Positions 471 through 26,763 of a stretch of 42,008 bases of DNA are shown here, in pieces. The position numbers and the translations under genes are program-made. The notes beneath the pieces were generated by a model, which did no database searches, had not been told where the DNA came from, and was given only the letters and a program-made list of their open reading frames with translations. Each line of letters begins with the position of its first letter. Positions within the stretch are counted from its first letter, which is position 1. The DNA is from a virus: IMG/VR virus record IMGVR_UViG_3300045988_028709, positions 1 to 42,008 of that record; one strand, given 5' to 3'.

Positions 471-3400
471 TTATTTCCCGGCCAAACGGGCGTTCTTCCG
501 AACTTTCTCGTTTACAAGCGCCTTGTTGTAATGCCGGATGCTTTTGCCTACCCCCAGATACTCAAAAAGTGCGTTCCGCTGCTTCTCACTCAAACCGGGC
601 ATATTGTACACCGCCTGCATGATCAGCAGCCCCTTGCTGTTGGGGATCGTCTCCCCGCTTCTGTCCTTGACGCTTTCCAGATCGGATACCTGCGTTTTCA
701 GCGCCACATAAATTTCCGGCTTAATGCCGTACTTCTTCTGTGCCTCCTGCGCATTCAACACCCACTTGTTCGTGATCTCATAGGTTTTGTCCGTCTCGTG
801 CAGTGCCGTCTTTTTGGCGTAGGTCTCCGCGCTGGACAGGGCCTTGTCTTTCTGCTCGTCAGTGAAGGCCATGAACACCGGGCTGTCCTCCAACCCGGAT
901 TCCATGGAGCTGTAAAGCTCGGACTTCCTGCGGCTGTATACGATGTAGTCATCGGAGCTGAGATCATTTTCCGTAAATTTGTCCTCGCCCTCGCCGGTGC
1001 CGTACCGGTCTTTCACACCGATCAGACTTGCAGCCGCGTCTGGGAGCCTGAAATCCTCATCGTTTTCCCGTTCCTTGTCCAGCTTGCTCCGCATACTGCT
1101 GTCAACGGAGCTGTTGTCCAGCGCCATGAAGTCTTTCAGCTCTTTGCGGATGTGTTCATAGGTGGTCAGGTCTCCCTGCTCCAGCGCCTTGAACGCCAGA
1201 TTCAGGTATCGGCTTTTGTTTGTGGTGCTGTAAATATTGTATGTGAATTTCTCAAATTCATATTCCAGCGCCACGCTGCCGGTAGCTTGAACAGCCGTCC
1301 GGACTGCCGCCATTGCGTCCCGCTTGATGTTGGCCACCGGAAGGCCGAAAAGCTTAGAACAAGCTGCAAACATATTTGTCAGCGCTTCTTCTCTGGTCTT
1401 TTTGCCGCTGCCGCCCATGCTTGCGGTGAAATCTTTAGAGGCAGATACAATGTCAGAAAACACCTGCATGTCCGTCCGGGATACGCTGTACCCCTGCGTC
1501 AGGGAAAGAATATCCTTTACAAACGGGATGCTTCCCAGCTTGTTGATGTTGCTCCCAAGGTTTCCTTCCAAAACAATATGCTGCAGCAGCTCCTTGGTGG
1601 TCTTCTCACCGCCGGTAATGCCGGTCAGTGCCGTCAGGAACTTCTCCCAATAATCCTTGTCCGGATCATCGTCACGCCCTGCGTCTGCGATGCTCTGGGC
1701 CAGTGCGTTAACTACGTCCGTCACCAGCAAAGCAGCAGCCGCACGTCCCACGGTTTTAATGGCCTTGCTCCGCTTGGCAGGGTTCTCTTCATAGCGCATA
1801 TTGTCCCATGCCCGCATGAACACGTTCAGGCTCATGATGGGTTCGCCCATGAACGAGGTCGCCTGCTTGGCAAGGTCGCTCTTGCCGCGCATGATGTTGG
1901 AACGCTGCAAAATGCCGTCTACCACCTGCGTCTGGTCGATCATGTTAGTAAACACTTCATTGACCGCGCTGTAAAATTCACCGCTGCCAGCCCGCAGATT
2001 AGGTCTCTCCCGCTTCACCTGCCACTCGCAGGCGTTCCAGAGCGCGCCCCAGGTAACGGCATCCGCTTTCCCTGCGGGAGCGCCAGCCTTGTCATTGATC
2101 TTGTTGGCGATGCCCTCCTTGCCGTAAAAACGGTCATTCAGGGTATAGGGGGAGGAAATGTCAAAGCTGCCCACGTCCTTCCGCATGGCAATAGGGGAAT
2201 GCGTCAAAGCCTTTTCCCAGCCGTTTCCCTTCGTAACGCCGCCGGTCAGGCCTCTTGCCATGTCAGCAGGATCCAATACGGCGGATGCCCGGAAAAAGGC
2301 GGACGGCTGCTGGATGACCACACGCACGTTCGCACCGACGGCAGCGCCCTTAAAGCTCCCGATGCCTTTTGCGAATTTATCCGTAAGCGGTTCAAAATCC
2401 TTGGTCTTGATGCCGTTCTGGATGTCGCCCATTAACTTCTGCCAGTACTGCTGAGATCCCTGTCCGCCCTTATCTTCCAGGAAGCCCTTTACGGTCTGAA
2501 CGAGATTGCCTTCACTGTCCCGGAACTGGAAGTTGTACAGCCGATTCGCGTCCTCCATGGGACACAGCCACGCTGCGTAGTCGATCATATCGGATGCGTG
2601 GTCCGCGAAGGTGTCAAACACCCCTCGGATGCTCAACGGCGTCGCCGCGTTGGGTTTTACAGCCTGCGCCATGCCGATATTCTTAATGGAGCGCACATTC
2701 CCGCTATCCTTCTCCTGCGAGCTGTGCAGTGCTTCCTTTGCGGATTTGATGGGCCAGTAGTCCTGCTCCGTGAATTTCTTATAGCCGTAGGCTTTCATGC
2801 TGGCCTCGTTGCCGTAGTTGGCAAGAACACCGGTGGTCAGCTTCTGCAAACCGTCCGCAATCCTGATCTGCTCCGGGGTCAAAACCTTCACAATGGACTG
2901 AATATCCTCTGCGGAAAGATGGATCACGTCCGTTCCTCTGGGGGTTTTGGTCTTGCCGGGAATCTTGATCTCCGGCTGCACGATGCCGCCTTTCAGCAGG
3001 TGGTCCTCCGCCTGCTTGCGTTCACTCAGAAGATACAGCTCCATGGCCTGTGCCGTGGTCAGGTCCAGCTCATGGCCTTCCGTTGTGGTGAAATGGTGGA
3101 CTTCCTCATTCATGGACGTTACCGCGTTTTCGCGGATGCCGGTTTTCGCGTCGCCCAGAATCTGGTGAACCTTCTCCGCCACATCCCGTGCCATGATCTC
3201 CTGATGGTCCTGCGCGTTCCGCAGCATCCGGTAAATGTCCTTTCCGGTCTGCCCGAAGTGGGCAAAGAACGTATAAGGCGTTTCCAGACTGATCGTCACG
3301 TTGTTTCCCAGTTTCCGCCGCCGGGTCATGCCGTCCATGCGGAGCGCATCGGCAAACTGCTTGGTGGTCTCGAATTTCTCCGACGCCAGCGTCTTGCCTG

Positions 3401-6400
3401 CCGTGGTTACGGAATGCTCCACGGATTTCAGCACGTTCCACATGGTTTTCAGCTGCTCTGTGGTCAGGTCCGCAAGGCGGGTGTCACCCATCTTGATGAC
3501 CTCGCTGAATCCACCGGTCACATCGTCGCCGCCCAGAAGAGACGGGTCCACCACCATATCGCCATCCTGGGCGATCTTCTGATACTGCTCCTTCAAATTC
3601 TGGAACGCCACCGTCCGGTTCGTCGGCGTGCCCGGTTCCTTGTAAATACGTTCCTTTGTCACAGGGTCCAGCGTAAAGGACCGTGCATTGGGGCTGCTCT
3701 CCTGATTGATGCTTTCCAGCACCTTTGCCACGGCGGAGCGCATATCCTCCGGAATGTGCTGGTTGTCCGTGGGCCGCAGCAGCTTTTGGGACAATGCGCT
3801 GGCATGGCGCACGATCTTAGCCCGCAGTTCTCTCCGCTTCTGATTGTCCCGCCGGGTCACGTCCTTCTCCCGGTAACGCTCCTTCAATGCCTGCACCTGC
3901 TCCGCACGCCGGGTCCGTTCCTTTGCCAATGCCTGCGCCGTGCTTCTTAGACGCTTTGCGTCCTGTCTGCCCTGGGCCATCTGCCCTGCCAAAAAGGCGT
4001 CATTTGCCGCCTGCCTGCCCTGAAATCTGGCTTCCTGCACCTGCTCCGCTGCTCGGTCTGCAAAGGTCTTTTTTGTCTGGGACAGGTCAAAGAACCGGTC
4101 CATAATGTCATTGGAAATAGACGCCACGGCCTGTCCCATGTAGCCTTCAAAGGGGTTGTACTCCGTCACCTTGTACAGCCGGTTCGCCACGTCCGCGATC
4201 CGCTGCACCTGGTCGGAGATGTTGGTATCCTGTGCCTCGTTGAAAAACTCCGGATACTGGTTGGACAGTTCGGAATAGATCTGGTCAACATTGGTGTGTT
4301 CGCCCTTGCTGATTTTCAGCTTGCCGAACAAGCTCTTGCGAAACTCGTTGAAGTCCGTGATCTCGGCGGCATCCGCTTCCGTCAGCGTCAGCTTGGTGTC
4401 TTTCAGATACTTCCGCAGACCGGCGTATTCCTTGTATGCCCGATCGTCCACCTCTACGGCGCTTTCTGCGATCCGCTCCGCAATGGCATCAGACCGTCTC
4501 CGCGCCTCTGCATAGGTCAGCTCGTCTTTGCCGTCCTTGCCGCTGGCAATGTAGTCATACAGACTTTGCAGATCCCCGGCAATCTCGCTGCCGCTAATCT
4601 CCGCGCCGTAGTCCTTTACCAGTGCATCCGCCGCCTTCTGAACGGATTTCCGGTCGGTGGTCACGCCCTGAGACCGTCTGGTCTGGCCCTTCCAGTACTC
4701 CACCCGCTCTTTCAGGATCTCGTTCTCCCGTTTCAGCGCCGCAATCTCCTGCGCGTTCTCCGTGCCCTTTAGGGAAAATTTTGCGTCATCCACGCTGTTG
4801 ACCTTCGCAAGCCGGTCCGCCTCGTCTCCGGCGATATATTCCACCGTGTTGACACCGGCATCCTGCAATGCGGCTTTCAGCTGGTCACTACTGTTGTCCG
4901 GGATCACCGCTGCCAATACCTCGTCAAACCCAACAGCACGCTGGGGCTTGGCTTCAAAGTATTCCGTCGGCAGCGCAGCCGCAGCTTTGTACAATTCCTG
5001 GATCTGCTTTGCGGTCACGTTGCTGATCTTGTAGCCTTCGTTTGCAAACGTCCGCATAATGGAATCAATGGTGCGTTTGCTCCTTGCAGCCTCCATCAGC
5101 ACGGTGCCGATGATCTCGCCCTCTTCAAAGGAATTGTCGGTATGGGCTTTGGTTGTCTGCATGATCCTCTGTGTGACGGCGCGGATCTTATCCTCCACTG
5201 CGCCCATCTGCGCTTTATAGCTGTCCGTTTCCACGGAACCCAGACGCCCGCTGTCATCCCGGATTTCCTGAATGGTCCGGTAAGAAGGCACCGCGCTTGC
5301 CTGCAAGCCTCCGGCAGTCACGCCGGATACCTGTCCGCCACGTTCCTCCTGGGTTTCCTGCATGGCCTTTACAATGTTTTCCAGCGTGTAGCTGTAATGG
5401 GTCTGGTTGAAGCTGCGGCGATTGCCAGAAGACGTGTACGGGTCCTTTCCGTTGTTGATGCCAGGTTCACCAAAGACACCGGTGAGCTGCTTTTCGACCC
5501 AGCCCTTCACGTCCTCGCCGTCAGTCATTTCGTGCAGCTTGTCCTGTGTGCCCCAGCGGTCGATCTCGCCCTTGGTTGCCCCGCCGTCCTGATAGTAGTC
5601 CCATGCGTGACGGGCAAGGCTTTCCAGCGTAAACGGGCTGACGTTTTCCATGCTCTTTTCAATGCGGGCATTTCGCTTCTCGGCAATTTCTTCCTGCGTC
5701 CAGCCTCGCTTTTGGGCCATTCTTTGTAAAATCGCCTCGCCCATGTCCCGGTAATAGTCCCGCAGAATATTCCGGAGCCGTTCCGCATCCTCCCCCAATG
5801 CGGTCTCCACGGACTGCCCCAGTTCAAAATTGGCGTTGATCTCTGCAAGACGCTGTACGCCGATTTCGTCCAGCACGGTCCGCACGGTATCATTTCCGTA
5901 CCTGTCCCACACCTTGTCCTGATAAACCGGTTTCAGTTCTTTCCCGTGGGCCTCCAGATACGCGGCTCTCACCGCGTCATCCCTTGCGAGGATCTCCGCC
6001 GCTTTGATGGGAGAATCTGTGCTGACTTCCTCAATGCCGTGACTTCTCAGTACGCTGCTGCTGGCAAAAATGCCGTTGGCAACTTTCTTGGAAAGCTCGT
6101 TGATCCTGCCCTCCACAGCCAGCGCAGCTTTTGCATTCACCGGGTATTCCACGCCGGGATTAGTGGGTGTATAAGCGTCGCCGCCGTATACTTTGTTCCG
6201 GCTGTCCGCCTGTGGGTCAATGGTGGTCTTGTTGAACAACAGGGAAATGGGGCCGTATTTGCTGTGTCCTGCCTTTGCCTTGACCACGGCAATAGACGGC
6301 ATAGGCAGCCCGCCCAGTTTCAATGCGGCCATAATGCTGGCCTCGTCCTTGTTGTGAACGGCAATCAGCTTGTCCGTTTCCTCAACGGGGGTTTTCAGAG

Positions 6401-9400
6401 AAAAGCGGGTGCTTTCTTTCGCCTTTTTTTGGTTGTCAGCCTTAAACCGCTCATGCAGTTCATTCAGTTCTTTGACGTAGGCAGAAAAGTCATAAAAGGC
6501 TGTGTTAAGAATTTCATTCAGCCCGCCCATATTCCCAGAACTGATGTGCCCATACAACGTCGCGTTCAGTTCGTCATATAGATTGATCCGCTCCGTCTCG
6601 CTCAAAGAAGTATTAAGCGGGTCAATTCCTCTGTGTTTCGCTGTGTGTTCCAGCAGAATGCGGGCTTCAAGTGTAGACATATCCAGCATATCCGGGGTTT
6701 TGGACACAAAGTCAAGGTAAGGCGTATAACCCACCTGCTTCATAACGTGTGTAATTTCGTGGGTGGCGTACATCCCCCGATTCTGCTCAGGCATGGTCTC
6801 CCGGAAATAGATTTGTCCACCGGCAGAAAATGCCGGGGCATTGCCCTTATTCTTGGCCCACGCCGCGTCATCCACAACAAAACTCGGCACACCGTAGTCT
6901 GCCGCTGTTTGCTGTTCTGTATAGGCCACGCTGCCCTGAGACGGTCTCACAATGTGGCCCTCAGCCCAGGAGCGCACAGGCTTCTGCCCGAAAGAGGCGT
7001 TTAATCCTCCCCGCCCTCGCCAAAGTACAGCGTCTCCTCGAAGAATTTCCCCAGCAGATTCTTGTACCGCTCGGTTTCCTTCTCGGTTTTGTTCGGCTTC
7101 TTGCGCAAAACTTCCATCTCCTTGCGCTCTTTCTCGTCCATCGTCCACGCCCTCCTTCACAGCATATCTTGTTTCGCTGATTGTACCATTTGTCTGCCGG
7201 TTCTGCAAGCTTTCCGCCTGCTTGCTGGCCGCTTCAAATGCCGCCTGCAGCTTGCCCTCCACCGTCTGGGCCTGCCGCTTGGCTCTGCCGGTCAGCTTGC
7301 CCACGATCTCATGAATGGCGTCACGCAGCTTTTGCAGCAGCGTCCGGTCGGTGCTGTGCTTCCGGATGAAATCGTCCAGCACGTCGCTGTTGGCGATCAT
7401 CTCACCGGCATAGTTGGCGGTAGCCTCGTCCAATGCCTGTTCGTAGCTGGTTTCAACGCCCGCCCGGTTGTACTGGTCAAGCAGGATGTTCGCCGCTTCC
7501 TGCACGTCTGGAATACTGGCCACGGCATCCCGGAACGCCCGGTACTGCTCCGGGGCCAGCTCCTGTACACGGTGGGTCCACTCGTGGCCTACCACCTGCA
7601 AAGCAGGGTCCACCGCGTCCTTTGCGATCAGAACGTCGCTGCCGGTAATCTGACCGTTTGCGCTTCCGCCCAGCACCTGATCCACCATCCGCGTCCGCAC
7701 GCCCAATGCTTTTGACACGGTGTTCACCTCGTCGGCAACAGCGCTGTCCATTTCACGGGAAACATAATCGTCGAACACAAGGCCGCTGTCCGTTCCGGCG
7801 GTCTTGGCAAACTGCGCCGCCCGCTTCTCTCTTGCAAGAGACGCCGCCGCGTCATTCTGCCCTGCCGCATACGCCGCAAAGGATACCGCGCTGGTACTGT
7901 TGGGGTTCTTCTGGTTGGTCATGCCTGCGTGATACGCCCGCAGAAATTCCCCGGCGTAGTCCCCACGGTCCGTCCCCTGATACGCCGTCTGAAACGCCTT
8001 CCTGCCACTGTCCCCCAGCTTGTCTGCAATACCGGTAAAGGTTTTCTGCACGGCGGCTTCTCGCTGCCGCAAGGCCTGTTCCTCCATGGAAACGGGATTG
8101 CTCACAGTCTGCCGCTGAACGGCTTCTTGAATGGCCCTCTGCGCACCCTCCTGCTGGGTCTGTGCGTTCGTTTGTGCGGGGGTGGTACGTGTACCCTCCT
8201 GAACGTCTGCGCGCTCCTGTGCGCCCTGCTGTGCGGTTCCCAGATCATAGCGGTATGTATTGGGGCTGACAAGCCCGCCCATTGCACCGGACGTGGCTCC
8301 AACCAGAAAGTCATACAGGGAGTTGGAAAGGGTTTCCTGTGCCGTAGCCACATCGCCGCCGTAAATGCGGGGCAGCTGCCATTCCATCCAATCACCGATG
8401 AACTCTTCCAAGCCCTCGCCAACCGCTCCGGCTCCGAAAGTCAGCGCCGATCCCAGCGCCTTTTTACCGGCTTCTGTTTTGGCAAATTTGTCTACTGCAC
8501 TGCGGATGCCGCGTTTTACCACATCATCCAGCGCACCGCCGCCGTATGCCTTTGCGAAGGGCATTGCGATGTTGAACATCTTTTCGGTGAAAACCTCTTT
8601 CGCGGCAGATGCCGTACCGTACAAAAGCTGCCCCTTGTAATCCGCGCCGTCCTGACGTGCCTGCTGGGTAGCCCCGCCGAAGGCGCGCACCGCAAACGGA
8701 GCCATGCCCAGCGCGCCGCCCGTCAGAATGCTGGGGATCGCGTCAAGACCGGTCTGTGTCATGGATGCGCCTGCGTCTACAAGCATGTTGCCAAGGAACC
8801 CTGCGCCTTCTTTTGCCCGCTCCAAATCAGCCTGCGCGCTTCCGGCAAGCTCGTCCGCCTTCCGGTATGCCTGATCGGCCACTGCCTTGTCGGACTGCTC
8901 CACCGCTTTGGTGTAGCTCTCATGGGCTGCGATCCGGCGTTTTGCGGCAGAAAGGTATTTCTGCACCTGCTGTACGTCCACCGCCGTCATGGGCTTGCCG
9001 TCGGCCCACTTTACGTCCCGTAGCATCTTTTCATACTGCTTCACCGCGTCATAATCGCTTTGCAGAGCCGCTCCGGCGTTCTGATTGGCGATTCTGGTAT
9101 TCAGGTAGCCAGCGCCCTCAGCCAGTACGCCACCTACGTTGGTATACGCCGCCGCAGACGATTTCGCACCGCCCTTAATAGTGTTCGTTACGCGGTCCGC
9201 AAAGGAAGGCGTATTGCCGGTATCACGCGGCTCCCGCTTTTGAATGTCCTGCAGCAGGCGGCTGTTTGCCGTGTTCTTCCGACCAACATTGTCCATAGGC
9301 AGGCCGCTCTGCTTCTTTGCAGGAGCCGTCGCAGGTGTAGTTTTCTTCTGTGGAGAGGCCCCCGCAGCGGGGGCGCTCTCCGGTTTATTAAAGTGGCTCC

Positions 9401-9512
9401 GATTCAGCTTCTGTACAGTTTTCACCGCGCCGGACGTGTCTTTCTTGTTCGTGCCTGTTGCCGTTTTGCGATTGCCTGTTCCGAAATAAGACCGATCCAG
9501 TTTTTGTGCCAT
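471..9512 (-). CDS. Giant 3,013-aa multidomain (polyvalent-type) putative virion/ejected protein with two zincin HExxH motifs
   Basis: Uninterrupted 9,042-nt ORF with AGGAGG 6 nt before the ATG at 9512. GHEWTH is encoded at 7572-7586 and THEITH at 6747-6761. It has a basic low-complexity N-terminus, a Gly/Ala-rich hydrophobic segment (aa ~230-420), an HN..GGLPMPSIAV module (aa ~1050-1080) and long coiled-coil stretches. Confidence 0.85.
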   Translation of the reverse strand: MAQKLDRSYFGTGNRKTATGTNKKDTSGAVKTVQKLNRSHFNKPESAPAAGASPQKKTTPATAPAKKQSGLPMDNVGRKNTANSRLLQDIQKREPRDTGNTPSFADRVTNTIKGGAKSSAAAYTNVGGVLAEGAGYLNTRIANQNAGAALQSDYDAVKQYEKMLRDVKWADGKPMTAVDVQQVQKYLSAAKRRIAAHESYTKAVEQSDKAVADQAYRKADELAGSAQADLERAKEGAGFLGNMLVDAGASMTQTGLDAIPSILTGGALGMAPFAVRAFGGATQQARQDGADYKGQLLYGTASAAKEVFTEKMFNIAMPFAKAYGGGALDDVVKRGIRSAVDKFAKTEAGKKALGSALTFGAGAVGEGLEEFIGDWMEWQLPRIYGGDVATAQETLSNSLYDFLVGATSGAMGGLVSPNTYRYDLGTAQQGAQERADVQEGTRTTPAQTNAQTQQEGAQRAIQEAVQRQTVSNPVSMEEQALRQREAAVQKTFTGIADKLGDSGRKAFQTAYQGTDRGDYAGEFLRAYHAGMTNQKNPNSTSAVSFAAYAAGQNDAAASLAREKRAAQFAKTAGTDSGLVFDDYVSREMDSAVADEVNTVSKALGVRTRMVDQVLGGSANGQITGSDVLIAKDAVDPALQVVGHEWTHRVQELAPEQYRAFRDAVASIPDVQEAANILLDQYNRAGVETSYEQALDEATANYAGEMIANSDVLDDFIRKHSTDRTLLQKLRDAIHEIVGKLTGRAKRQAQTVEGKLQAAFEAASKQAESLQNRQTNGTISETRYAVKEGVDDGRERAQGDGSFAQEAEQNREGNRAVQESAGEILRGDAVLWRGRGGLNASFGQKPVRSWAEGHIVRPSQGSVAYTEQQTAADYGVPSFVVDDAAWAKNKGNAPAFSAGGQIYFRETMPEQNRGMYATHEITHVMKQVGYTPYLDFVSKTPDMLDMSTLEARILLEHTAKHRGIDPLNTSLSETERINLYDELNATLYGHISSGNMGGLNEILNTAFYDFSAYVKELNELHERFKADNQKKAKESTRFSLKTPVEETDKLIAVHNKDEASIMAALKLGGLPMPSIAVVKAKAGHSKYGPISLLFNKTTIDPQADSRNKVYGGDAYTPTNPGVEYPVNAKAALAVEGRINELSKKVANGIFASSSVLRSHGIEEVSTDSPIKAAEILARDDAVRAAYLEAHGKELKPVYQDKVWDRYGNDTVRTVLDEIGVQRLAEINANFELGQSVETALGEDAERLRNILRDYYRDMGEAILQRMAQKRGWTQEEIAEKRNARIEKSMENVSPFTLESLARHAWDYYQDGGATKGEIDRWGTQDKLHEMTDGEDVKGWVEKQLTGVFGEPGINNGKDPYTSSGNRRSFNQTHYSYTLENIVKAMQETQEERGGQVSGVTAGGLQASAVPSYRTIQEIRDDSGRLGSVETDSYKAQMGAVEDKIRAVTQRIMQTTKAHTDNSFEEGEIIGTVLMEAARSKRTIDSIMRTFANEGYKISNVTAKQIQELYKAAAALPTEYFEAKPQRAVGFDEVLAAVIPDNSSDQLKAALQDAGVNTVEYIAGDEADRLAKVNSVDDAKFSLKGTENAQEIAALKRENEILKERVEYWKGQTRRSQGVTTDRKSVQKAADALVKDYGAEISGSEIAGDLQSLYDYIASGKDGKDELTYAEARRRSDAIAERIAESAVEVDDRAYKEYAGLRKYLKDTKLTLTEADAAEITDFNEFRKSLFGKLKISKGEHTNVDQIYSELSNQYPEFFNEAQDTNISDQVQRIADVANRLYKVTEYNPFEGYMGQAVASISNDIMDRFFDLSQTKKTFADRAAEQVQEARFQGRQAANDAFLAGQMAQGRQDAKRLRSTAQALAKERTRRAEQVQALKERYREKDVTRRDNQKRRELRAKIVRHASALSQKLLRPTDNQHIPEDMRSAVAKVLESINQESSPNARSFTLDPVTKERIYKEPGTPTNRTVAFQNLKEQYQKIAQDGDMVVDPSLLGGDDVTGGFSEVIKMGDTRLADLTTEQLKTMWNVLKSVEHSVTTAGKTLASEKFETTKQFADALRMDGMTRRRKLGNNVTISLETPYTFFAHFGQTGKDIYRMLRNAQDHQEIMARDVAEKVHQILGDAKTGIRENAVTSMNEEVHHFTTTEGHELDLTTAQAMELYLLSERKQAEDHLLKGGIVQPEIKIPGKTKTPRGTDVIHLSAEDIQSIVKVLTPEQIRIADGLQKLTTGVLANYGNEASMKAYGYKKFTEQDYWPIKSAKEALHSSQEKDSGNVRSIKNIGMAQAVKPNAATPLSIRGVFDTFADHASDMIDYAAWLCPMEDANRLYNFQFRDSEGNLVQTVKGFLEDKGGQGSQQYWQKLMGDIQNGIKTKDFEPLTDKFAKGIGSFKGAAVGANVRVVIQQPSAFFRASAVLDPADMARGLTGGVTKGNGWEKALTHSPIAMRKDVGSFDISSPYTLNDRFYGKEGIANKINDKAGAPAGKADAVTWGALWNACEWQVKRERPNLRAGSGEFYSAVNEVFTNMIDQTQVVDGILQRSNIMRGKSDLAKQATSFMGEPIMSLNVFMRAWDNMRYEENPAKRSKAIKTVGRAAAALLVTDVVNALAQSIADAGRDDDPDKDYWEKFLTALTGITGGEKTTKELLQHIVLEGNLGSNINKLGSIPFVKDILSLTQGYSVSRTDMQVFSDIVSASKDFTASMGGSGKKTREEALTNMFAACSKLFGLPVANIKRDAMAAVRTAVQATGSVALEYEFEKFTYNIYSTTNKSRYLNLAFKALEQGDLTTYEHIRKELKDFMALDNSSVDSSMRSKLDKERENDEDFRLPDAAASLIGVKDRYGTGEGEDKFTENDLSSDDYIVYSRRKSELYSSMESGLEDSPVFMAFTDEQKDKALSSAETYAKKTALHETDKTYEITNKWVLNAQEAQKKYGIKPEIYVALKTQVSDLESVKDRSGETIPNSKGLLIMQAVYNMPGLSEKQRNALFEYLGVGKSIRHYNKALVNEKVRKNARLAGK

Positions 9513-21357: not shown

Positions 21358-21710
21358 GTGTCTGCTCCTTTATCAGATTGCCGCGTCTGCGGCTTGGAAC
21401 ACAAATCAAGTCCCCTCGTATCCACGCGGAGGTTTGCAGGATAGCCTTGTGCAAGGCTTATTAGCCCCAGTACAGCCGCCCGCCACGGTTCCCAGCACGG
21501 CCCACGGGCTTCCAGTACGAACCGCCCCGGCTCCATGTGATCCCGCGTAATAGTTACGCCCTCGGCGTTTTTGCACCAGAGATACAGCGTCTGACAGATG
21601 GCAGAGATGGCCGCACACACCACGTCTTTCCCGCTTTCTGCGTACCCGGCGTGCCCCCGACATTCCAGCCGGACGGTATCTCCGTTCTGTTCTGCGTACA
21701 CACGGGTCAT
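21354..21710 (-). CDS. prp: Prp-like ribosomal-processing cysteine protease homolog (putative prohead protease)
   Basis: 118 aa with the GHAGYAESGKDVVCAAIS catalytic His/Cys signature of the Prp/DUF464 family. Sits between the portal and scaffold genes. Confidence 0.7.
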   Translation of the reverse strand: MTRVYAEQNGDTVRLECRGHAGYAESGKDVVCAAISAICQTLYLWCKNAEGVTITRDHMEPGRFVLEARGPCWEPWRAAVLGLISLAQGYPANLRVDTRGLDLCSKPQTRQSDKGADT

Positions 21711-23599
21711 GCCCTGCTCCTCTCAGCCAGCCGTTCGCCGTAACTCTTCTTGTTGGCGCTGATGGCATCCTGACGGGCCTGTGCAATGGTCGGACCGCCG
21801 CCGCCCTGTTTGGTCTGGCTTTGGTATCCCGGCTGCTCCACGCTCATGCCTGCCGCCGCCTGGAACATGGCCAGCTGCTGTTGGAGCTGCTGCACCACAT
21901 TCAACAGCGTCTGCCCCTGCTGCACCTGCTGCAGGATCTGTTCCTTGCCTTCAAAGTCCATCATGGACAGGGCAATGATGCTCTGCTGAGCGTTCTCCGG
22001 ATTGAAGAATCCAAGTCCGTACAGCTCCTTTGCCCGCTCATACTGGGCTTCAATGGTGAAGGGGCTGCGCTTCTGGGGTCTGATCTTCAAGTCGAACACG
22101 GGACGTCGGAACATCTGCGCCACATTCCCCGGCATCGCCACCGGCTGGTCCTGCATCCCGGCGTTGTTGAAGTCCACAAACTCCATCTGCCCGCCCTCGC
22201 CTAAAATGCGGAAGGTGCGGGTCTCCGTATAAAACTGCCGGATCAGCTCGATCACCAGAGAACACACCTTCCGGTATGCCCGGTAGCTGCCCTGGATCAT
22301 GTCACGGCTCACCTTGTTGCCGGATTCCTGCAGGGCTGCAATGGCCGCTGCCGCCGTCACGCCGGAGGTTCCGCCGCTGTTCATGTCCCGGTTGGCGCTG
22401 GTCTCCTTCATCTCGTCGATCTTCATCTGATAGACGTCGATGTAGTTCCCTTCCAGAGAGGGCGGCACGATGGGCTGTAAATGATCGCTGTCCAGCCTCG
22501 GCAGCGCGCTGTGCACGATGGCGCAGTTTGCGTCTTTCAGCTCATCCTCATTGATGCCTGCCTGCTCGGATGCCAGATACCGGGTCTTGGTTCCCAGCAG
22601 ACTGCGCTCCAGAATGTTCTGGCCCAGCTTGTCGATGTAAAGCTGTGGGTTCTTGCAGATGGCGATCATGCCGAAGCCATACGGCGTCCCCGCTTCCGGG
22701 AACATGGTGTCGAATACCACCGGATACAGACCGTGGTCATAATAGCCGCGCTCGGAATAGTTGGCATCATTCTCACTGGCATACAGGATGCAGTCCCCAG
22801 AGAACTTGCAGTAATGCAGCAGCGTCTTCCCGGTCAGGTCCTTTTTCTTGTAATACCAGTCCCACACCAGACACTTCCCCGTCCAGTCCACGTTGGGATC
22901 GTAAGAGTAGGCGTAGTCATCAGGCGTGGCCGTCTCCAGCTTGCCCTTATACTGCGGAAACCGCGCTTCCAGATCCGCCGTCTCCGCCACGCCTGCAATA
23001 AACAGGTTCCGGCTCTGCTGAATGTCCTTGACACCCGGTTCCCAGTAAACGTCCAGCAGGTCAAGATCGTGAATATCAATGTCGCCCAGCCCATTTTCTT
23101 TCTCCGGGTCCCACCCAACGAAATACGCGCCGGTGCCGTGCTTCAGCTTGCCCCACCAGGCATCTGCATACACTTCCTCAAACTCCGCCACCTCCATGAC
23201 GCAGGGGAGAATGGAGGACAGCTTCTTTGCTTCCTGCTGGTCTCCCGCCTCTCTCGGAAGCACGTTCGGCTCCGGATAGTTGTCCATAGCGTCGGCGTGT
23301 TTGTTGGTGATAGCGTTGAACAGCCATGCGGAGGACGGCTCCGGCACATCCGGGTTGAACTTCTTCCGCACCGCTTCCCAGTGCCGCACCCGATACCACA
23401 GCTCATCCTCTTTCAAGCGGTTTTCCAGCAGGCTCTTGCCGTCCTTGTACTTCCGCACCGTCTCCGCCGCCTTGCGGATGTCATCCACCTTGATTGCATC
23501 CCCGGTGGCCATCTGCCCTGCGGGCTGCGGCTGTAGCTGAGGCATGAGACTTCCCAGCCCCATGCCCATTGCCTTATTGAATAAGTCCTGTCTGTCCAT
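21707..23599 (-). CDS. Portal protein
   Basis: 630-aa ORF directly downstream of TerL. Size and position are typical of a portal. Confidence 0.75.
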   Translation of the reverse strand: MDRQDLFNKAMGMGLGSLMPQLQPQPAGQMATGDAIKVDDIRKAAETVRKYKDGKSLLENRLKEDELWYRVRHWEAVRKKFNPDVPEPSSAWLFNAITNKHADAMDNYPEPNVLPREAGDQQEAKKLSSILPCVMEVAEFEEVYADAWWGKLKHGTGAYFVGWDPEKENGLGDIDIHDLDLLDVYWEPGVKDIQQSRNLFIAGVAETADLEARFPQYKGKLETATPDDYAYSYDPNVDWTGKCLVWDWYYKKKDLTGKTLLHYCKFSGDCILYASENDANYSERGYYDHGLYPVVFDTMFPEAGTPYGFGMIAICKNPQLYIDKLGQNILERSLLGTKTRYLASEQAGINEDELKDANCAIVHSALPRLDSDHLQPIVPPSLEGNYIDVYQMKIDEMKETSANRDMNSGGTSGVTAAAAIAALQESGNKVSRDMIQGSYRAYRKVCSLVIELIRQFYTETRTFRILGEGGQMEFVDFNNAGMQDQPVAMPGNVAQMFRRPVFDLKIRPQKRSPFTIEAQYERAKELYGLGFFNPENAQQSIIALSMMDFEGKEQILQQVQQGQTLLNVVQQLQQQLAMFQAAAGMSVEQPGYQSQTKQGGGGPTIAQARQDAISANKKSYGERLAERSRA

Positions 23600-23609
23600 A
23601 CGTCCTCCA

Positions 23610-25046
23610 TCAGTATTTCCGGAACCATGCGTAATCCCGGTCCTCCGGCTCGTCCGCGTCCAGAGGGCTGTACGGCTTCACCGCCGCCGGGATGCGGATA
23701 GTCTGCGCCACAGGGTATTCCATGCACATATACCGGCACTCGTCATAAATATGGTCCTCACCGTCGGTGTCCACGTCCTCAACGTCCGTCTCGCTGTATA
23801 CCAGATTCGGCACCGTCCGGATAAAATGCTTACAGGTATCAAACACATACAGCATGGGGATACCCTGTCCATCAAAGGCCAGCCGATTGTGGATCTGCAT
23901 CTTCCCGTTCAGCCGGTCATGCTGCCCCGGCTCCCAGAACACGCCCTTGCGCTCCATCACCGCCGCCACGCTTTCCGTGCCGCTGTTGCCGAAGATAGCC
24001 GGGTCTGCCACGCCCCGCACCGTCCGCCCCTGTAAATTGGGGTCCTCCCGCTCAATGCGGCGTATCTCATCCGCCACATGGTCCGGCGTCCACTTCACAC
24101 CCTCATTGGGCGTTCCCGTGCAGCCGTACAGCTCCCGGATGCGGTAAAGCCGCCGGTCCTGATCCACGGCGTACCAGCCCACGGAGAAGGGCCGCGTATA
24201 GCCCCAGTCCATCGCCCGCCACACATTCCAGTTTTCCGGAATGCGGAACGGCTCAATGACATGGGTCTTGATATGGTCTCGGTAATGCTCACGGTCATTG
24301 ATCCATTCGCGGAACACTTGGCCGGAGAAGCTGTCCCAGTTGCCGTCCAACAGCGCTGCACGCTCCGCCTCCGGCAGGGACGCCAGATTTAAAATGTAAT
24401 TGGGGTCATTCCGCAGAAGCGCGGCATTGTCCGTCACCTTTGCCGGAATAAAGATCCGGCTGCGCCTGCCCTCCTGCTTTTTACCGTCAGCTCCTATCCA
24501 GGAAACATCCTGCCAGATGGTCTGCATGGGCGGAGCCGCCGTGATAAAGCGGTCTTTCACCCATCCGTGGCCGATGCCGCCGGGGTTCGCCGTGGCCCGC
24601 ATATAAACCCGCGTTCCCGGCCCGTTGGGCCGGTTGCGGGAAAACATATAGCTGTATTCCTCCCAGGTGAAATGGGTCAACTCGTCAAACGCGATAAAGT
24701 CATACGCCTGTCCCTGATATTTCACGCGGTCTTTGGTGTACTGCATGGAGCCGAAAATGATTTTCGCCCCGCTGGGGAATGACCATGTGTGGCTGCTGCC
24801 GTTGTATCTGGCTTTCGGGTATACACGCGGATAATAGGAAAGCGTCTTGTCAATCAGCTCCGCCAGCTGCGGATAGGTCTTTCGCAGGATCAGGCCCTTG
24901 TACCACGGGATATTCACCTGCCGCAAGGCCTCGATCACCAGTGCGTCGCTCTTCCCGCCTCCGGCGGCGCCGCCATACAGTGCCTCCCATTCCGGGCGGC
25001 TCATAAAAATAGCCTGTCTCGGTTGCGGCGTCCAGATCACATTCAC
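23610..25046 (-). CDS. terL: Terminase large subunit
   Basis: 478 aa. Walker A-like YGGAAGGGKSD near the N-terminus and a C-terminal nuclease-type region. GTG start overlaps the TerS stop. Confidence 0.9.
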   Translation of the reverse strand: MNVIWTPQPRQAIFMSRPEWEALYGGAAGGGKSDALVIEALRQVNIPWYKGLILRKTYPQLAELIDKTLSYYPRVYPKARYNGSSHTWSFPSGAKIIFGSMQYTKDRVKYQGQAYDFIAFDELTHFTWEEYSYMFSRNRPNGPGTRVYMRATANPGGIGHGWVKDRFITAAPPMQTIWQDVSWIGADGKKQEGRRSRIFIPAKVTDNAALLRNDPNYILNLASLPEAERAALLDGNWDSFSGQVFREWINDREHYRDHIKTHVIEPFRIPENWNVWRAMDWGYTRPFSVGWYAVDQDRRLYRIRELYGCTGTPNEGVKWTPDHVADEIRRIEREDPNLQGRTVRGVADPAIFGNSGTESVAAVMERKGVFWEPGQHDRLNGKMQIHNRLAFDGQGIPMLYVFDTCKHFIRTVPNLVYSETDVEDVDTDGEDHIYDECRYMCMEYPVAQTIRIPAAVKPYSPLDADEPEDRDYAWFRKY

Positions 25047-25453
25047 AGCTTTTCCTCCGGCAGCACCGATGGCATCTGCACCACGCCGGTACCCGCTTCA
25101 TCCGCGCCCATGCCCTGTGCCTGCGTCCATTTGTCGATCAGGGTCCCTAACGCAGTTGTGATCTGGCTTGGCGTTGCCTCTGCCAGCTTCTCTGGGTCAT
25201 TCAGCACTGCCAGCCCCTTGCCGATGATCTGGCACACGATGTCCCGCTGGCTTTCCATGTATGCGAGAATGTCCGCTGTGTTCTGGTCTTTTTTCTGTTC
25301 CAGTTTTTTCTCGACTTCTCCCGCTTCTTTCAGGACTTTGTTCGCGGCGTCCCACGAAACCTTGTTCTTTTTCGCGGCAGCATTCACTGACTGCGTTTCC
25401 AGATAGTCCGCCAGTATTTTCTTTTTCTGCCGGTCTGTCAGTCTCGCAGCCAT
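25043..25453 (-). CDS. terS: Terminase small subunit
   Basis: Start at ATG 25453 after GAGGTGG. N-terminal HTH-like segment (RLTDRQKKKILADYLETQSVNAAAKKNKVS) and position upstream of TerL. Confidence 0.7.
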   Translation of the reverse strand: MAARLTDRQKKKILADYLETQSVNAAAKKNKVSWDAANKVLKEAGEVEKKLEQKKDQNTADILAYMESQRDIVCQIIGKGLAVLNDPEKLAEATPSQITTALGTLIDKWTQAQGMGADEAGTGVVQMPSVLPEEKL

Positions 25454-25462
25454 TGTCACCAC

Positions 25463-26338
25463 CTCAAATCAATTTTGCTACCAGCCCCCACCCCTTGGCC
25501 TTACATAGCAGACTTTACCCGCCCCGAAGGGCTACAACGCCGCCCATATTGGGCGTTAGTCTTTTCACAGGTCCCGGCATTGCGCTCTGTTTGAATTGCT
25601 TACACAGCGGCCTAATCATACGATTGCCGCCACCACGCCACATCCATTGAACGCCTCGGCACTCGCGCAGAGTGTAGCAATGCCGGTATCCCACGGAACT
25701 TTTCAGCCCTGCGCCGGTATGTCGGTCGCATCCGTTTCTTCATTTATAGCCGGAGCCAGCCAAATAATTATTATTCGGCCTGCCGCTTTCATACAGCGCA
25801 CAGGCAAGCCCCTTGTAGCGGTCTTACCCTTCCGCGGTGCCGCAATGCGGTAGCATACATCTGGCAGGGACGGTTGGGGATCGAACCCACCCAAGCGGTT
25901 TTGGAGACCGCCTCGCCAGCCTTGGAACATTCGCCCCTGTATCCCGCGTTTGCGTACTCGCCGGAGCGGGTACGTGTTCTAAGTAACGCTCGATTCAACG
26001 CGGGCAAATCGAACGGCCCTTCGCGGAGCCACGCCCTGCTGACGGGACACAACGCTCGCCAAGTATGGGCTTGCCGCAATATTGCCCCTGTACGCTGTCA
26101 GCTTTGGGATTTGGCGCAGACGGCGGGGCTTACACCTGCTTCATCGCAATGGCGTCACCAAAGCGCCGCTCTTTGGGTTGAGCTACGTCTGCATACCCCC
26201 GGCATCTGCCGGGGTCAGGAGGAAAGAAAGGATGGAAAGAATGAGGATACGGATATAACCCCGCACCCTCATTCTCGCACATCTGTTCGTCAACATTCCT
26301 CCAAATGGAGGAATTTGAAATATTTATTTTCTGTACAA
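25463..26338 (-). ncRNA. Candidate large structured ncRNA (GOLLD/ROOL-like or novel), boundaries unknown
   Basis: ORF-free on both strands within an otherwise gap-free genome. Many perfect local helices including a UUCG tetraloop hairpin (25521-25532), and a central tRNA-like module. See findings. Confidence 0.45.
25862..25938 (-). tRNA. tRNA-like element with a Trp-type anticodon loop (CU-CCA-AA); non-canonical D arm and T/acceptor junction
   Basis: - strand AGGGGCG..GCGGU-CUCCAAA-ACCGC..UGGG-UUCGAUC-CCCA..CGUCCCU-G-CCA. The acceptor pairs 7/7 (one GU) and the anticodon stem 5/5, and a GUUCGAUC T-loop and encoded CCA are present. The D stem pairs poorly and one extra nt sits between the T stem and the acceptor. 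Confidence 0.45.
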
Positions 26339-26560
26339 TTAAGAGTTTCGCTCACCCTCATCCCAGCAAAGCTGGTCAAGGCTGACGTTGTAATACGCAG
26401 CAATCAGTTTCAGCTCCGACAGCCCCGGTTCCCGTGTGCCTCGCTCGTACCGTCTCAATGCGTCCCGGCTCAGCCCCATCAGTTCAGATGCCACATACCG
26501 GCTGACAACCGGGTGTCTGCTTTCTCGGAGCCGCTGCAGCCGTTCCGGGAATGTACTCAC
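26339..26560 (-). CDS. XRE-family HTH regulator
   Basis: 73 aa. FPERLQRLRESRHPVVSRYVASELMGLSRDALRRYERGTREP fits the XRE/Cro-CI HTH pattern. Confidence 0.75.
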   Translation of the reverse strand: MSTFPERLQRLRESRHPVVSRYVASELMGLSRDALRRYERGTREPGLSELKLIAAYYNVSLDQLCWDEGERNS

Positions 26561-26763
26561 ATAACCACCTCACATAGCCGGAAGTTCTCTACCACGGGTC
26601 CGCCCGCCGTTTCCGTCCGCACACTGACAAACCGGCCCTTTGGATGGATGTAAATTACCTCTCCGCGCCGGAACGGATACATCTGCTCATACGTCGGGTG
26701 CTGCCGCTCCAGCTGGGACGGTATGGACTTGAATCTGGCCCGAACCACCTGTCCAAGTTTCAT
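26557..26763 (-). CDS. Hypothetical small protein
   Basis: Start at MKLGQVV (26763) overlapping the upstream stop (ATGA). 68 aa. Confidence 0.55.
   Translation of the reverse strand: MKLGQVVRARFKSIPSQLERQHPTYEQMYPFRRGEVIYIHPKGRFVSVRTETAGGPVVENFRLCEVVM

Follow-up and report, generated by a model that had tools for sequence, protein, structure and literature searches.

The window analyzed here, the whole stretch of 42,008 nt that makes up IMG/VR virus record IMGVR_UViG_3300045988_028709, carries nearly all of its phage genes on the - strand, where adjacent genes overlap or abut, as the first-pass annotation had remarked. The coordinates of the open reading frames (ORFs) likewise bear out the 885-nt gap that it had described between an XRE-type helix-turn-helix (HTH) gene and a small ORF in the position of terS. 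Within this gap we identified an element of about 297 nt that directly follows a tRNA-like gene, recurs in many other gut phages and very probably represents a new family of structured RNA linked to tRNAs. The features that frame it are as follows.

26339-26560, - strand: XRE-type HTH gene, the upstream edge of the gap.
25862-25938, - strand: tRNA-Trp(cca)-like gene of 77 nt called by ARAGORN, whose D-arm is non-canonical and whose G-CCA end is encoded, the 5' boundary of the element.
25565-25861, - strand, read from 25861 to 25565: conserved structured RNA, with a core of about 297 nt that opens with the base following the tRNA CCA and extends to a conserved CCUGUGA.
25043-25453 or 25043-25462 (start at 25453 or 25462), - strand: small terS-like ORF, with a 4-nt overlap with terL.
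23610-25046, - strand: terL.
21707-23599, - strand: portal gene.

The name terS, used in the first-pass annotation, is retained for position only, since the small ORF had no Pfam match and its PHROG match was weak and unrelated. All ORFs in the gap were short and those over its widely conserved part lacked conservation, in agreement with the earlier statement that no credible ORF is present.

The limits of the element are apparent from its conservation. Across 89 distinct loci the conservation profile climbs at the 3' end of the tRNA and drops after CUGUGA, blastn coverage agrees, and the conserved unit measures 297-360 nt throughout the family. The RNA that is supported by covariation amounts to only about 297 nt (25565-25861), not to the single 885-nt RNA that had been proposed, and the tRNA, formerly read as a central module enclosed by that RNA, forms the 5' boundary of the conserved RNA and lies outside it. 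The earlier expectation of a structured non-coding RNA in a phage, tied to a tRNA and placed just upstream of the packaging genes, is supported by both conservation and covariation.

The seed set was collected by exact-match patterns. A 19-mer from the core matched at least 119 IMG/VR contigs, and a second pattern that avoids this 19-mer brought in about 26 others that the covariance model confirmed, for a total of at least 145 IMG/VR phage contigs. The members found with the second pattern were single-base core variants plus a few deletion or contig-truncated copies. The 89 distinct sequences fell into 33 clusters at 90% identity, with 45% as the lowest identity to the window copy, and the element also occurred in contigs of more than 100 kb, within tRNA islands. 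With covariance model R1, whose seed alignment includes the window itself, the window copy scored 132.3 bits (expectation value, E, of 5e-25) and was the single copy in the whole 42 kb. Among phage records, blastn matched positions 25811-25473 of the window to MT835513 (95.6% identity) and a shorter piece to MT835520, both uncultured human-faecal 'Bacteriophage sp.'; no other phage record contained the element, and three further matches covered the tRNA only. The genes neighbouring the match differ between these two records, and in both the match is preceded by a tRNA or tRNA-like ending in CGUCUGC-A-CCA. Five matches were obtained in species-representative genomes, four of them in metagenome-assembled genomes (MAGs) of Oscillospiraceae, Oscillibacter or Eubacteriales and one in a further MAG; one of the five (locus L122) was unconfirmed by the covariance model. 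Judged from these few MAG hits, the hosts of the gut phages that carry the element are Oscillospiraceae. One deletion variant (L020) has lost the entire 3' domain and two loci from the second scan are without GCGCAGGGCUGAAAAGUUCCGU; these are probably decaying copies.

Closer examination of the upstream border revealed a strict physical junction with tRNA-like modules. An acceptor stem of 7 bp (or 6 of 7) with a discriminator and CCA behind it ends 144-177 nt before the core in 82 of the 89 distinct loci, and a further five loci have ACAA instead of ACCA. The end of this acceptor-stem/NCCA module coincides with the 5' end of the element, which begins 0-2 nt after NCCA in nearly all loci. ARAGORN assigned the upstream modules to Gly, Trp, Met, Ser, Thr and Cys tRNAs and made no call there in 58 of 100 loci. 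Modules in four loci (L001, L002, L095 and L108) scored 49-52 bits as Rfam tRNA, while others are cloverleaf-like and have kept the acceptor stem and NCCA and lost a normal anticodon arm or T-loop. Upstream types are interchangeable, tRNA type and element subtype being freely recombined. On the other side, a downstream tRNA (Gly, Gln or Thr) is located 150-225 nt after the core in about 24 of 100 loci and begins 5-20 nt after UGUGA; many loci are tRNA islands with 4-8 tRNAs each. In the window itself the 77-nt module noted earlier was indeed called as tRNA-Trp(cca) at 25862-25938 on the - strand, the only ARAGORN tRNA in the 42 kb, but it is atypical: it fell under the gathering threshold of 29 bits for Rfam tRNA (RF00005), and its best match in the clan was tRNA-Sec with 33.5 bits (threshold 47).

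The tRNA-Trp(cca)-like genes of the window and of the 'type B' modules in L015, L016, L025 and others have a common unusual D-arm, UGUnCCAAGGnGGCGA, which Rfam aligned best as a Sec-type 6-bp D-stem, and their anticodon loop CUCCAAA is constant across differing acceptor stems. A recurrent cloverleaf-like module of about 92 nt, GCGGCAU...AUGCCGU-A-CCA, was observed about 95 nt upstream of the element in L004, L006, L018, L038, L043, L048 and others; its D-arm analogue is capped by GUAA, its anticodon-arm analogue is long, it has a 7-nt loop that is not a T-loop, and it is ARAGORN-negative. A hairpin before the tRNA-like was considered as a defining feature and rejected, being common and not universal (mean minimum free energy, MFE, of -10.4 kcal/mol versus -7.2 kcal/mol for shuffled sequence). 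A tmRNA, including two-piece or permuted forms, was rejected as well: the acceptor stem of the upstream module is complete in itself, the element has no Rfam tmRNA match, and ARAGORN found no tmRNA in the window or related loci.

With RNAalifold on the complete MAFFT alignment the structure was recovered only in part, and we therefore relied on a combination of averaged pair probabilities, sub-alignments and strands extracted by means of anchors. The extreme 5' region (putative helices P1-P3) is variable. The 5' core consists of P4, P5 and P6/P6a arranged around a 46-nt centre, with an AU-rich J4/5 linker between P4 and P5.

25778-25805, - strand: P4 hairpin, GCCUG..CGCU-loop-AGCG..CAGGC, with two-sided changes in six of eight pairs.
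25790-25794, - strand: 5' strand of the pseudoknot, GUAUG, in the P4 loop.
25748-25761, - strand: P5 hairpin, GGCUG[GCUC]CGGCU, which includes a U·G pair that is invariant, 96.5% paired.
25691-25736, - strand: near-invariant 46-nt core, AACGGAUGCGACCGACAUACCGGCGCAGGGCUGAAAAGUUCCGUGG (AACGGAUGCGACC..GGCGCAGGGCUGAAAAGUUCCGUGG), containing P6, P6a and the AGGGCUGAAAAGU internal loop.
25731-25735 with 25693-25697, - strand: P6, ACGGA/UCCGU, which never varies.
25711-25729, - strand: P6a hairpin, in which two pairs covary.
25717-25721, - strand: 3' strand of the pseudoknot, CAUAC, in the P6a loop, pairing with 25790-25794.

In the 51-sequence alignment of the 5' core, 95.4% of the cells were paired versus 32-43% when the partners were slid, changes on both sides were seen in 14 pairs, and none of 500 shuffles matched the observed covariation. 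The pseudoknot between the P4 and P6a loops had compensatory changes in four of its five pairs and 96% of cells paired, its variants being GUAUG:CAUAC, GUACG:CGUAC, GUGCA:UGCAC and CGCACA:UGUGCG. Independent double changes in P5 were found in L031 (AUCUG/CGGAU) and L095 (GUCUG/CGGAC). Core flanks outside the search pattern were 97-100% conserved in the 89 loci. The duplicated AUACCGGC reported by the first-pass annotation is present at 25682-25689 and 25713-25720; the palindrome formed by AAUAAUUAUU in the window is not conserved in the family.

The second half of the fold comprises a closed 3' domain and, in a subset of loci, a further structured segment.

25574-25686, - strand: 3' domain closed by P7, containing P8, P9 and the conserved junction motifs.
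25677-25686 with 25574-25583, - strand: P7 long helix, CCGGCAUUGC/GCAAUGCCGG.
25660-25674, - strand, within 25651-25674: P8 hairpin, CACUC[UGCGC]GAGUG.
25651-25659, - strand: conserved CCGAGGCG motif, directly after P8.
25633-25639, - strand: conserved GGNGUGG, flanking P9.
25605-25632, - strand: P9/P9a hairpin, UGGCGG-C-AAUC[GUAU]GAUU-AGG-CCGCUG, 100% paired in alignment A3.
About 25598-25606, - strand: conserved GUGUAAG, flanking P9.
25477-25561, - strand: subtype-specific structured 3' extension or leader of about 85 nt, ending beside the ribosome-binding site (RBS) of the next gene.

Overall, 98.9% of the cells of the 3' domain were paired versus 30-46% when slid. All nine inner pairs of P7 are compensatory (97.8% paired), cognate P7 duplexes over all subtypes had a mean of -28.2 kcal/mol versus -12.9 kcal/mol for non-cognate ones, and the helix base was 85% paired versus 54% in shuffled sequence. 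Three of the four P9a pairs are compensatory, and the six basal pairs of P9 were 94% paired over all subtypes versus 77% shuffled, with AU, GC, CG and UA variants. The conserved junction motifs of the domain are GAGGCG, GGNGUGG, GUGUAG and CUGUGA, and a hairpin followed by YGAGGCG is found in every subtype. The model leaves room for an alternative at P8, where CUCUG may pair with a distal CAGAG or the P8 strands may extend P7. About 28 loci conserve the 3' extension, whose GCUAU..GUAGC / GUUAC..GUGAC stem shows compensatory changes, and the extension is missing where a tRNA follows the element; its inclusion in the RNA is uncertain. Several of the helices proposed by the first-pass annotation are not the conserved ones (25759-25779, for example).

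The same alignments bear on whether the conservation could be that of a protein gene or a DNA site. Codon-like conservation, which the first-pass annotation had named as grounds for abandoning an RNA, was sought in the relatives. Column entropy showed no 3-periodicity; 205 indels had lengths with remainder 1 modulo 3, 110 had remainder 2 and only 26 were multiples of 3; no reading frame remained open in all members, and in 26 of 51 sequences every frame was interrupted. A protein-coding element was rejected on these grounds. An antisense ORF 'family' overlaps the element in 88 loci and is a by-product of conserved, GC-rich DNA. Among the pairs, 105 were G·U and 14 A·C, an excess that places the RNA on the tRNA strand, here the - strand. 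Comparison of the family thus shows the element to be a structured RNA, read, as far as sequence can tell, off the same strand as the tRNAs. A DNA site such as pac/cos, attP or an origin, or a small protein gene, might still be suggested by the nearby terminase genes, by antisense ORFs of at least 100 aa over the element in many loci and by contigs that end within it, yet helices and pseudoknot are preserved by compensatory changes, G·U pairs strongly outnumber A·C pairs on one strand, and periodicity, intact frames and a family-wide open frame are all missing, which makes this explanation extremely unlikely. The contigs in question (L131, L149 and L171, from IMG/VR) probably end there through the assembly breakage that is expected at a repeat common to co-occurring phages, not at a physical genome end.

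The RNA did not correspond to a described class. Rfam was searched at gathering score on the window and 13 related loci, at E≤10 over 25200-26600 and at E≤1 in five diverse members; GOLLD, ROOL, raiA, OLE, tmRNA, T-box and RNase P gave no match, and only tRNAs and chance matches were returned. The membership in GOLLD or ROOL considered earlier thus failed, and its alternative, a new class, fits. So far as we found, no large structured phage RNAs other than GOLLD and ROOL have been described in association with tRNA islands. Both are RNAs of phages or prophages that often lie close to tRNA islands; GOLLD, discovered downstream of a Met-tRNA, sometimes has tRNAs embedded and combines a conserved 3' region with a variable 5' region, and ROOL adopts a complex multi-helix fold with pseudoknots and has no known protein partner or function (PMC12286853). 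The element resembles ROOL in being phage-encoded, in its tRNA-island context, in its multi-helix pseudoknotted fold and in lacking a known partner. It is unlike ROOL, which is roughly 580 nt long, in its size of about 300 nt, in the missing Rfam match and in its direct fusion to an NCCA end, undescribed for ROOL. With GOLLD it has in common the occurrence in phages or prophages near tRNA islands, the link to a tRNA and the variable extreme 5' region, whereas GOLLD usually exceeds 800 nt (297-360 nt here), its helices and motifs differ, no Rfam match was obtained and the tRNA is a 5' neighbour of the element and not enclosed by it. The element is therefore of a recognised kind, the tRNA-island-associated structured phage RNA, and the class itself is new.

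Fremin et al. 2023 (PMC10690425) list 10,006 candidate structured RNAs from IMG/VR. Their main text resembles the present case in its sources (IMG/VR and human faecal viromes) and in its many tRNA-like and upstream-of-terminase candidates, and that main text describes no tRNA-fused, pseudoknotted RNA of about 300 nt; the catalogue might contain fragments of the element. A full-text literature search for the core sequence returned no papers, and a topic search no description of the element. The window copy has all features of the family, namely the start at NCCA, the P4:P6a pseudoknot, the 46-nt core and the P7-closed 3' domain with P9.

The remaining upstream part of the gap follows a different pattern. 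Positions 26338-25939 of the window are common to only 4-8 of about 120 related loci. Locus L108 is 99% identical to window 26400-26179, is then interrupted by a gap and resumes at about 25878, so that, relative to L108, the window carries a different block of about 300 nt that includes the tRNA-Trp-like gene. Taken together with the limits of conservation, this comparison identifies the 885-nt gap as a mosaic, in the order early-operon leader with three strong hairpins, degenerate tRNA-like, spacer, tRNA-Trp-like gene, element of about 297 nt and extension of about 85 nt. The upstream features, all outside the conserved RNA, are the following.

26197-26338, - strand: lineage-specific leader after the XRE gene, in about five loci.
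26295-26314, 26238-26276 (17 bp) and 26197-26214, - strand: leader hairpins.
26112-26192, - strand: second, degenerate tRNA-like, with acceptor GCAGACG/CGUCUGC, G and CCA, a D-arm and no canonical T-loop.

The degenerate tRNA-like has a perfect 7-bp acceptor stem (fold z -2.5) and was missed by ARAGORN and Rfam. The same variant is present in L051 and L094 with 93-94% identity, and an intact version stands directly 5' of the element in L108, L120 and L058. All hairpins listed by the first-pass annotation could be located, with z of -2.2 to -3.9, except that 25999-26025 is shuffle-like (z +0.14). Its description of the gap as hairpin-dense held, beyond chance, for the upstream half, 25939-26338 (z -5.2), but not for the downstream half (z -1.15). 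The upstream score is due mainly to the three strong local hairpins, of which the 17-bp hairpin at 26238-26276 (z -6.1) had been absent from the earlier list. A C/U-rich tract at 26216-26247 overlaps the 3' arm of this hairpin; the two could form a terminator or attenuator between early and late units, and a simple terminator scan did not call the hairpin.

The whole gap is without conserved ORFs, its upstream half folds better than shuffles and GOLLD and ROOL are phage RNAs near tRNA islands (PMC12286853), all of which would suit one ornate GOLLD/ROOL-type RNA of about 885 nt enclosing a central tRNA module. We give this explanation next to no credence: the upstream 400 nt are recombinant and confined to the few loci mentioned above, L108 has the leader and not the block of about 300 nt with the tRNA-Trp-like gene, and neither GOLLD nor ROOL, raiA or OLE matched at E≤10 in the gap or at E≤1 in the five diverse members.

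Genes downstream of the element are diverse and include several unrelated terS-like families, a ParB-like protein, HU or tRNAs, and no protein family is common to the loci within about 7 kb of the element. In a large-phage lineage, cysteine-desulfurase-like and HU-like genes lie past the tRNA island (L002 5123-6295 and about 20 more loci, about +2 kb from the core). This diversity bears on a possible role of the element as cis-acting leader for the late/packaging operon, that is, as a processive-antitermination or translation-control RNA governing terS and later genes. In the window it is indeed situated between early-type regulators (XRE and PucR-type HTH) and terS-like, terL and portal genes; in a large fraction of the loci it is followed by a small terminase-like ORF or some other first late gene, and the conserved 3' extension reaches the RBS in about 28. 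Against such a role, tRNAs and not an ORF follow the element in about 24 loci, the downstream genes come from many unrelated families (HU, ParB-like and cysteine desulfurase contexts), and contigs of more than 100 kb carry it within tRNA islands. In addition, no intrinsic terminator follows it on the - strand of the window, the sole terminator-like site being on the + strand. We consider a cis-acting leader unlikely.

The precision of the junction, 0-2 nt after NCCA in nearly all loci, raises another possibility, a ribozyme or RNA device whose target is the attached tRNA or tRNA-like, for example by self-cleavage at the CCA junction that frees a CCA-3' end, or by some other use of this end. 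Conservation of the 46-nt core, beside the pseudoknot, is at the level of an active site, and acceptor stem and NCCA are retained in tRNA-likes that have no normal anticodon arm or T-loop. The element has no similarity, however, to the self-cleaving ribozyme families in Rfam, and ACAA replaces ACCA in five loci. A T-box-like UGGN:NCCA pairing was tried and rejected: the discriminator and the base after GUGG are U/C in 15 loci and C/C in five, which cannot pair and show no covariation, and Rfam T-box gave no match over the gap. Such a device is very unlikely. Slightly less so, and still doubtful, is the broader notion that the NCCA module and the RNA of about 300 nt constitute one device, either a ribozyme on the CCA end or a third self-assembling phage RNA particle that carries tRNA-like cargo; by analogy, such cargo has been speculated for GOLLD too.

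On balance, the segment from 25861 to 25565 on the - strand is probably a new structured phage RNA of about 300 nt that is freed from tRNA transcripts by tRNA-processing enzymes; the excision route by itself we put at roughly even chances. The element would be co-transcribed with the tRNAs and released as a stable RNA by the tRNA-maturation machinery of the host, its 5' end being set by a cut at or near the upstream CCA and its 3' end, where a downstream tRNA is present, by RNase P cleavage at the 5' end of that tRNA. The released RNA would act in trans during infection, as a tRNA-island passenger like GOLLD and ROOL, and the exchangeable, often anticodon-defective upstream tRNA-likes would be kept mainly as processing handles, a role with which their retained acceptor stem is consistent.

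Release of non-tRNA RNAs through tRNA punctuation is known from MALAT1/mascRNA, from mitochondrial tRNA punctuation and from the stable 'species 1/2' RNAs in the tRNA cluster of phage T4. In these systems, as at the present loci, a non-tRNA RNA adjoins structures of tRNA or tRNA-like type, and tRNA-processing enzymes can therefore define its ends; for the element such processing is a prediction. The tRNA-like of MALAT1 is located 3' of the RNA, whereas here it is 5' and has an encoded CCA, and the T4 RNAs are far smaller, with no sign of homology.

Several points weigh against release by tRNA processing or against parts of the structural evidence. Transcription, processing sites and stability of the element are all deduced computationally. 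The usual 3'-maturation routes of Firmicutes are ill suited to an encoded CCA with a tightly folded trailer directly behind it, and the enzyme for the 5' cut at the CCA junction is only a putative host activity. At many loci, the window among them, the element stands right before the first late/packaging gene, and the subtype-specific 3' extension abuts the RBS of the next gene; both observations also fit a role in cis. The MFE of the window copy was no better than that of shuffles (z -1.15 for the downstream half). Because P6 and the core loop are invariant, covariation is silent on them, and part of the invariance of the core reflects ascertainment, since the seed set was gathered by exact-match patterns, an effect that is eased by the second, independent scan.

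Elsewhere in the window, an ORF of 3013 aa at 471-9512 on the - strand contains a PBECR5 domain (E 2.4e-61, aa 1035-1232), a phage Barnase-EndoU-ColicinE5/D-RelE-like nuclease domain, and an eCIS_core domain. Its domain content suggests a giant polyvalent protein equipped with an RNase-type domain, and the phage also carries tRNA and tRNA-like modules; a connection between this protein and the tRNA-linked RNA is pure speculation.

The element would represent a third, unrelated and smaller RNA class with the genomic habit of GOLLD and ROOL. If NCCA module and RNA did function as one device, the near-invariant 46-nt core would be its active or assembly site. With its strict physical NCCA junction, an almost invariant 46-nt core and more than 145 natural variants, the family offers a compact system for asking what tRNA-island RNAs do and why they travel with tRNAs, and at about 300 nt it lends itself more readily than GOLLD or ROOL to transcription, mutation and imaging. 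The family also shows that many of the 'tRNAs' in arrays of gut phages are degenerate tRNA-shaped modules kept beside another RNA, which bears on how the tRNA content of phages is read.

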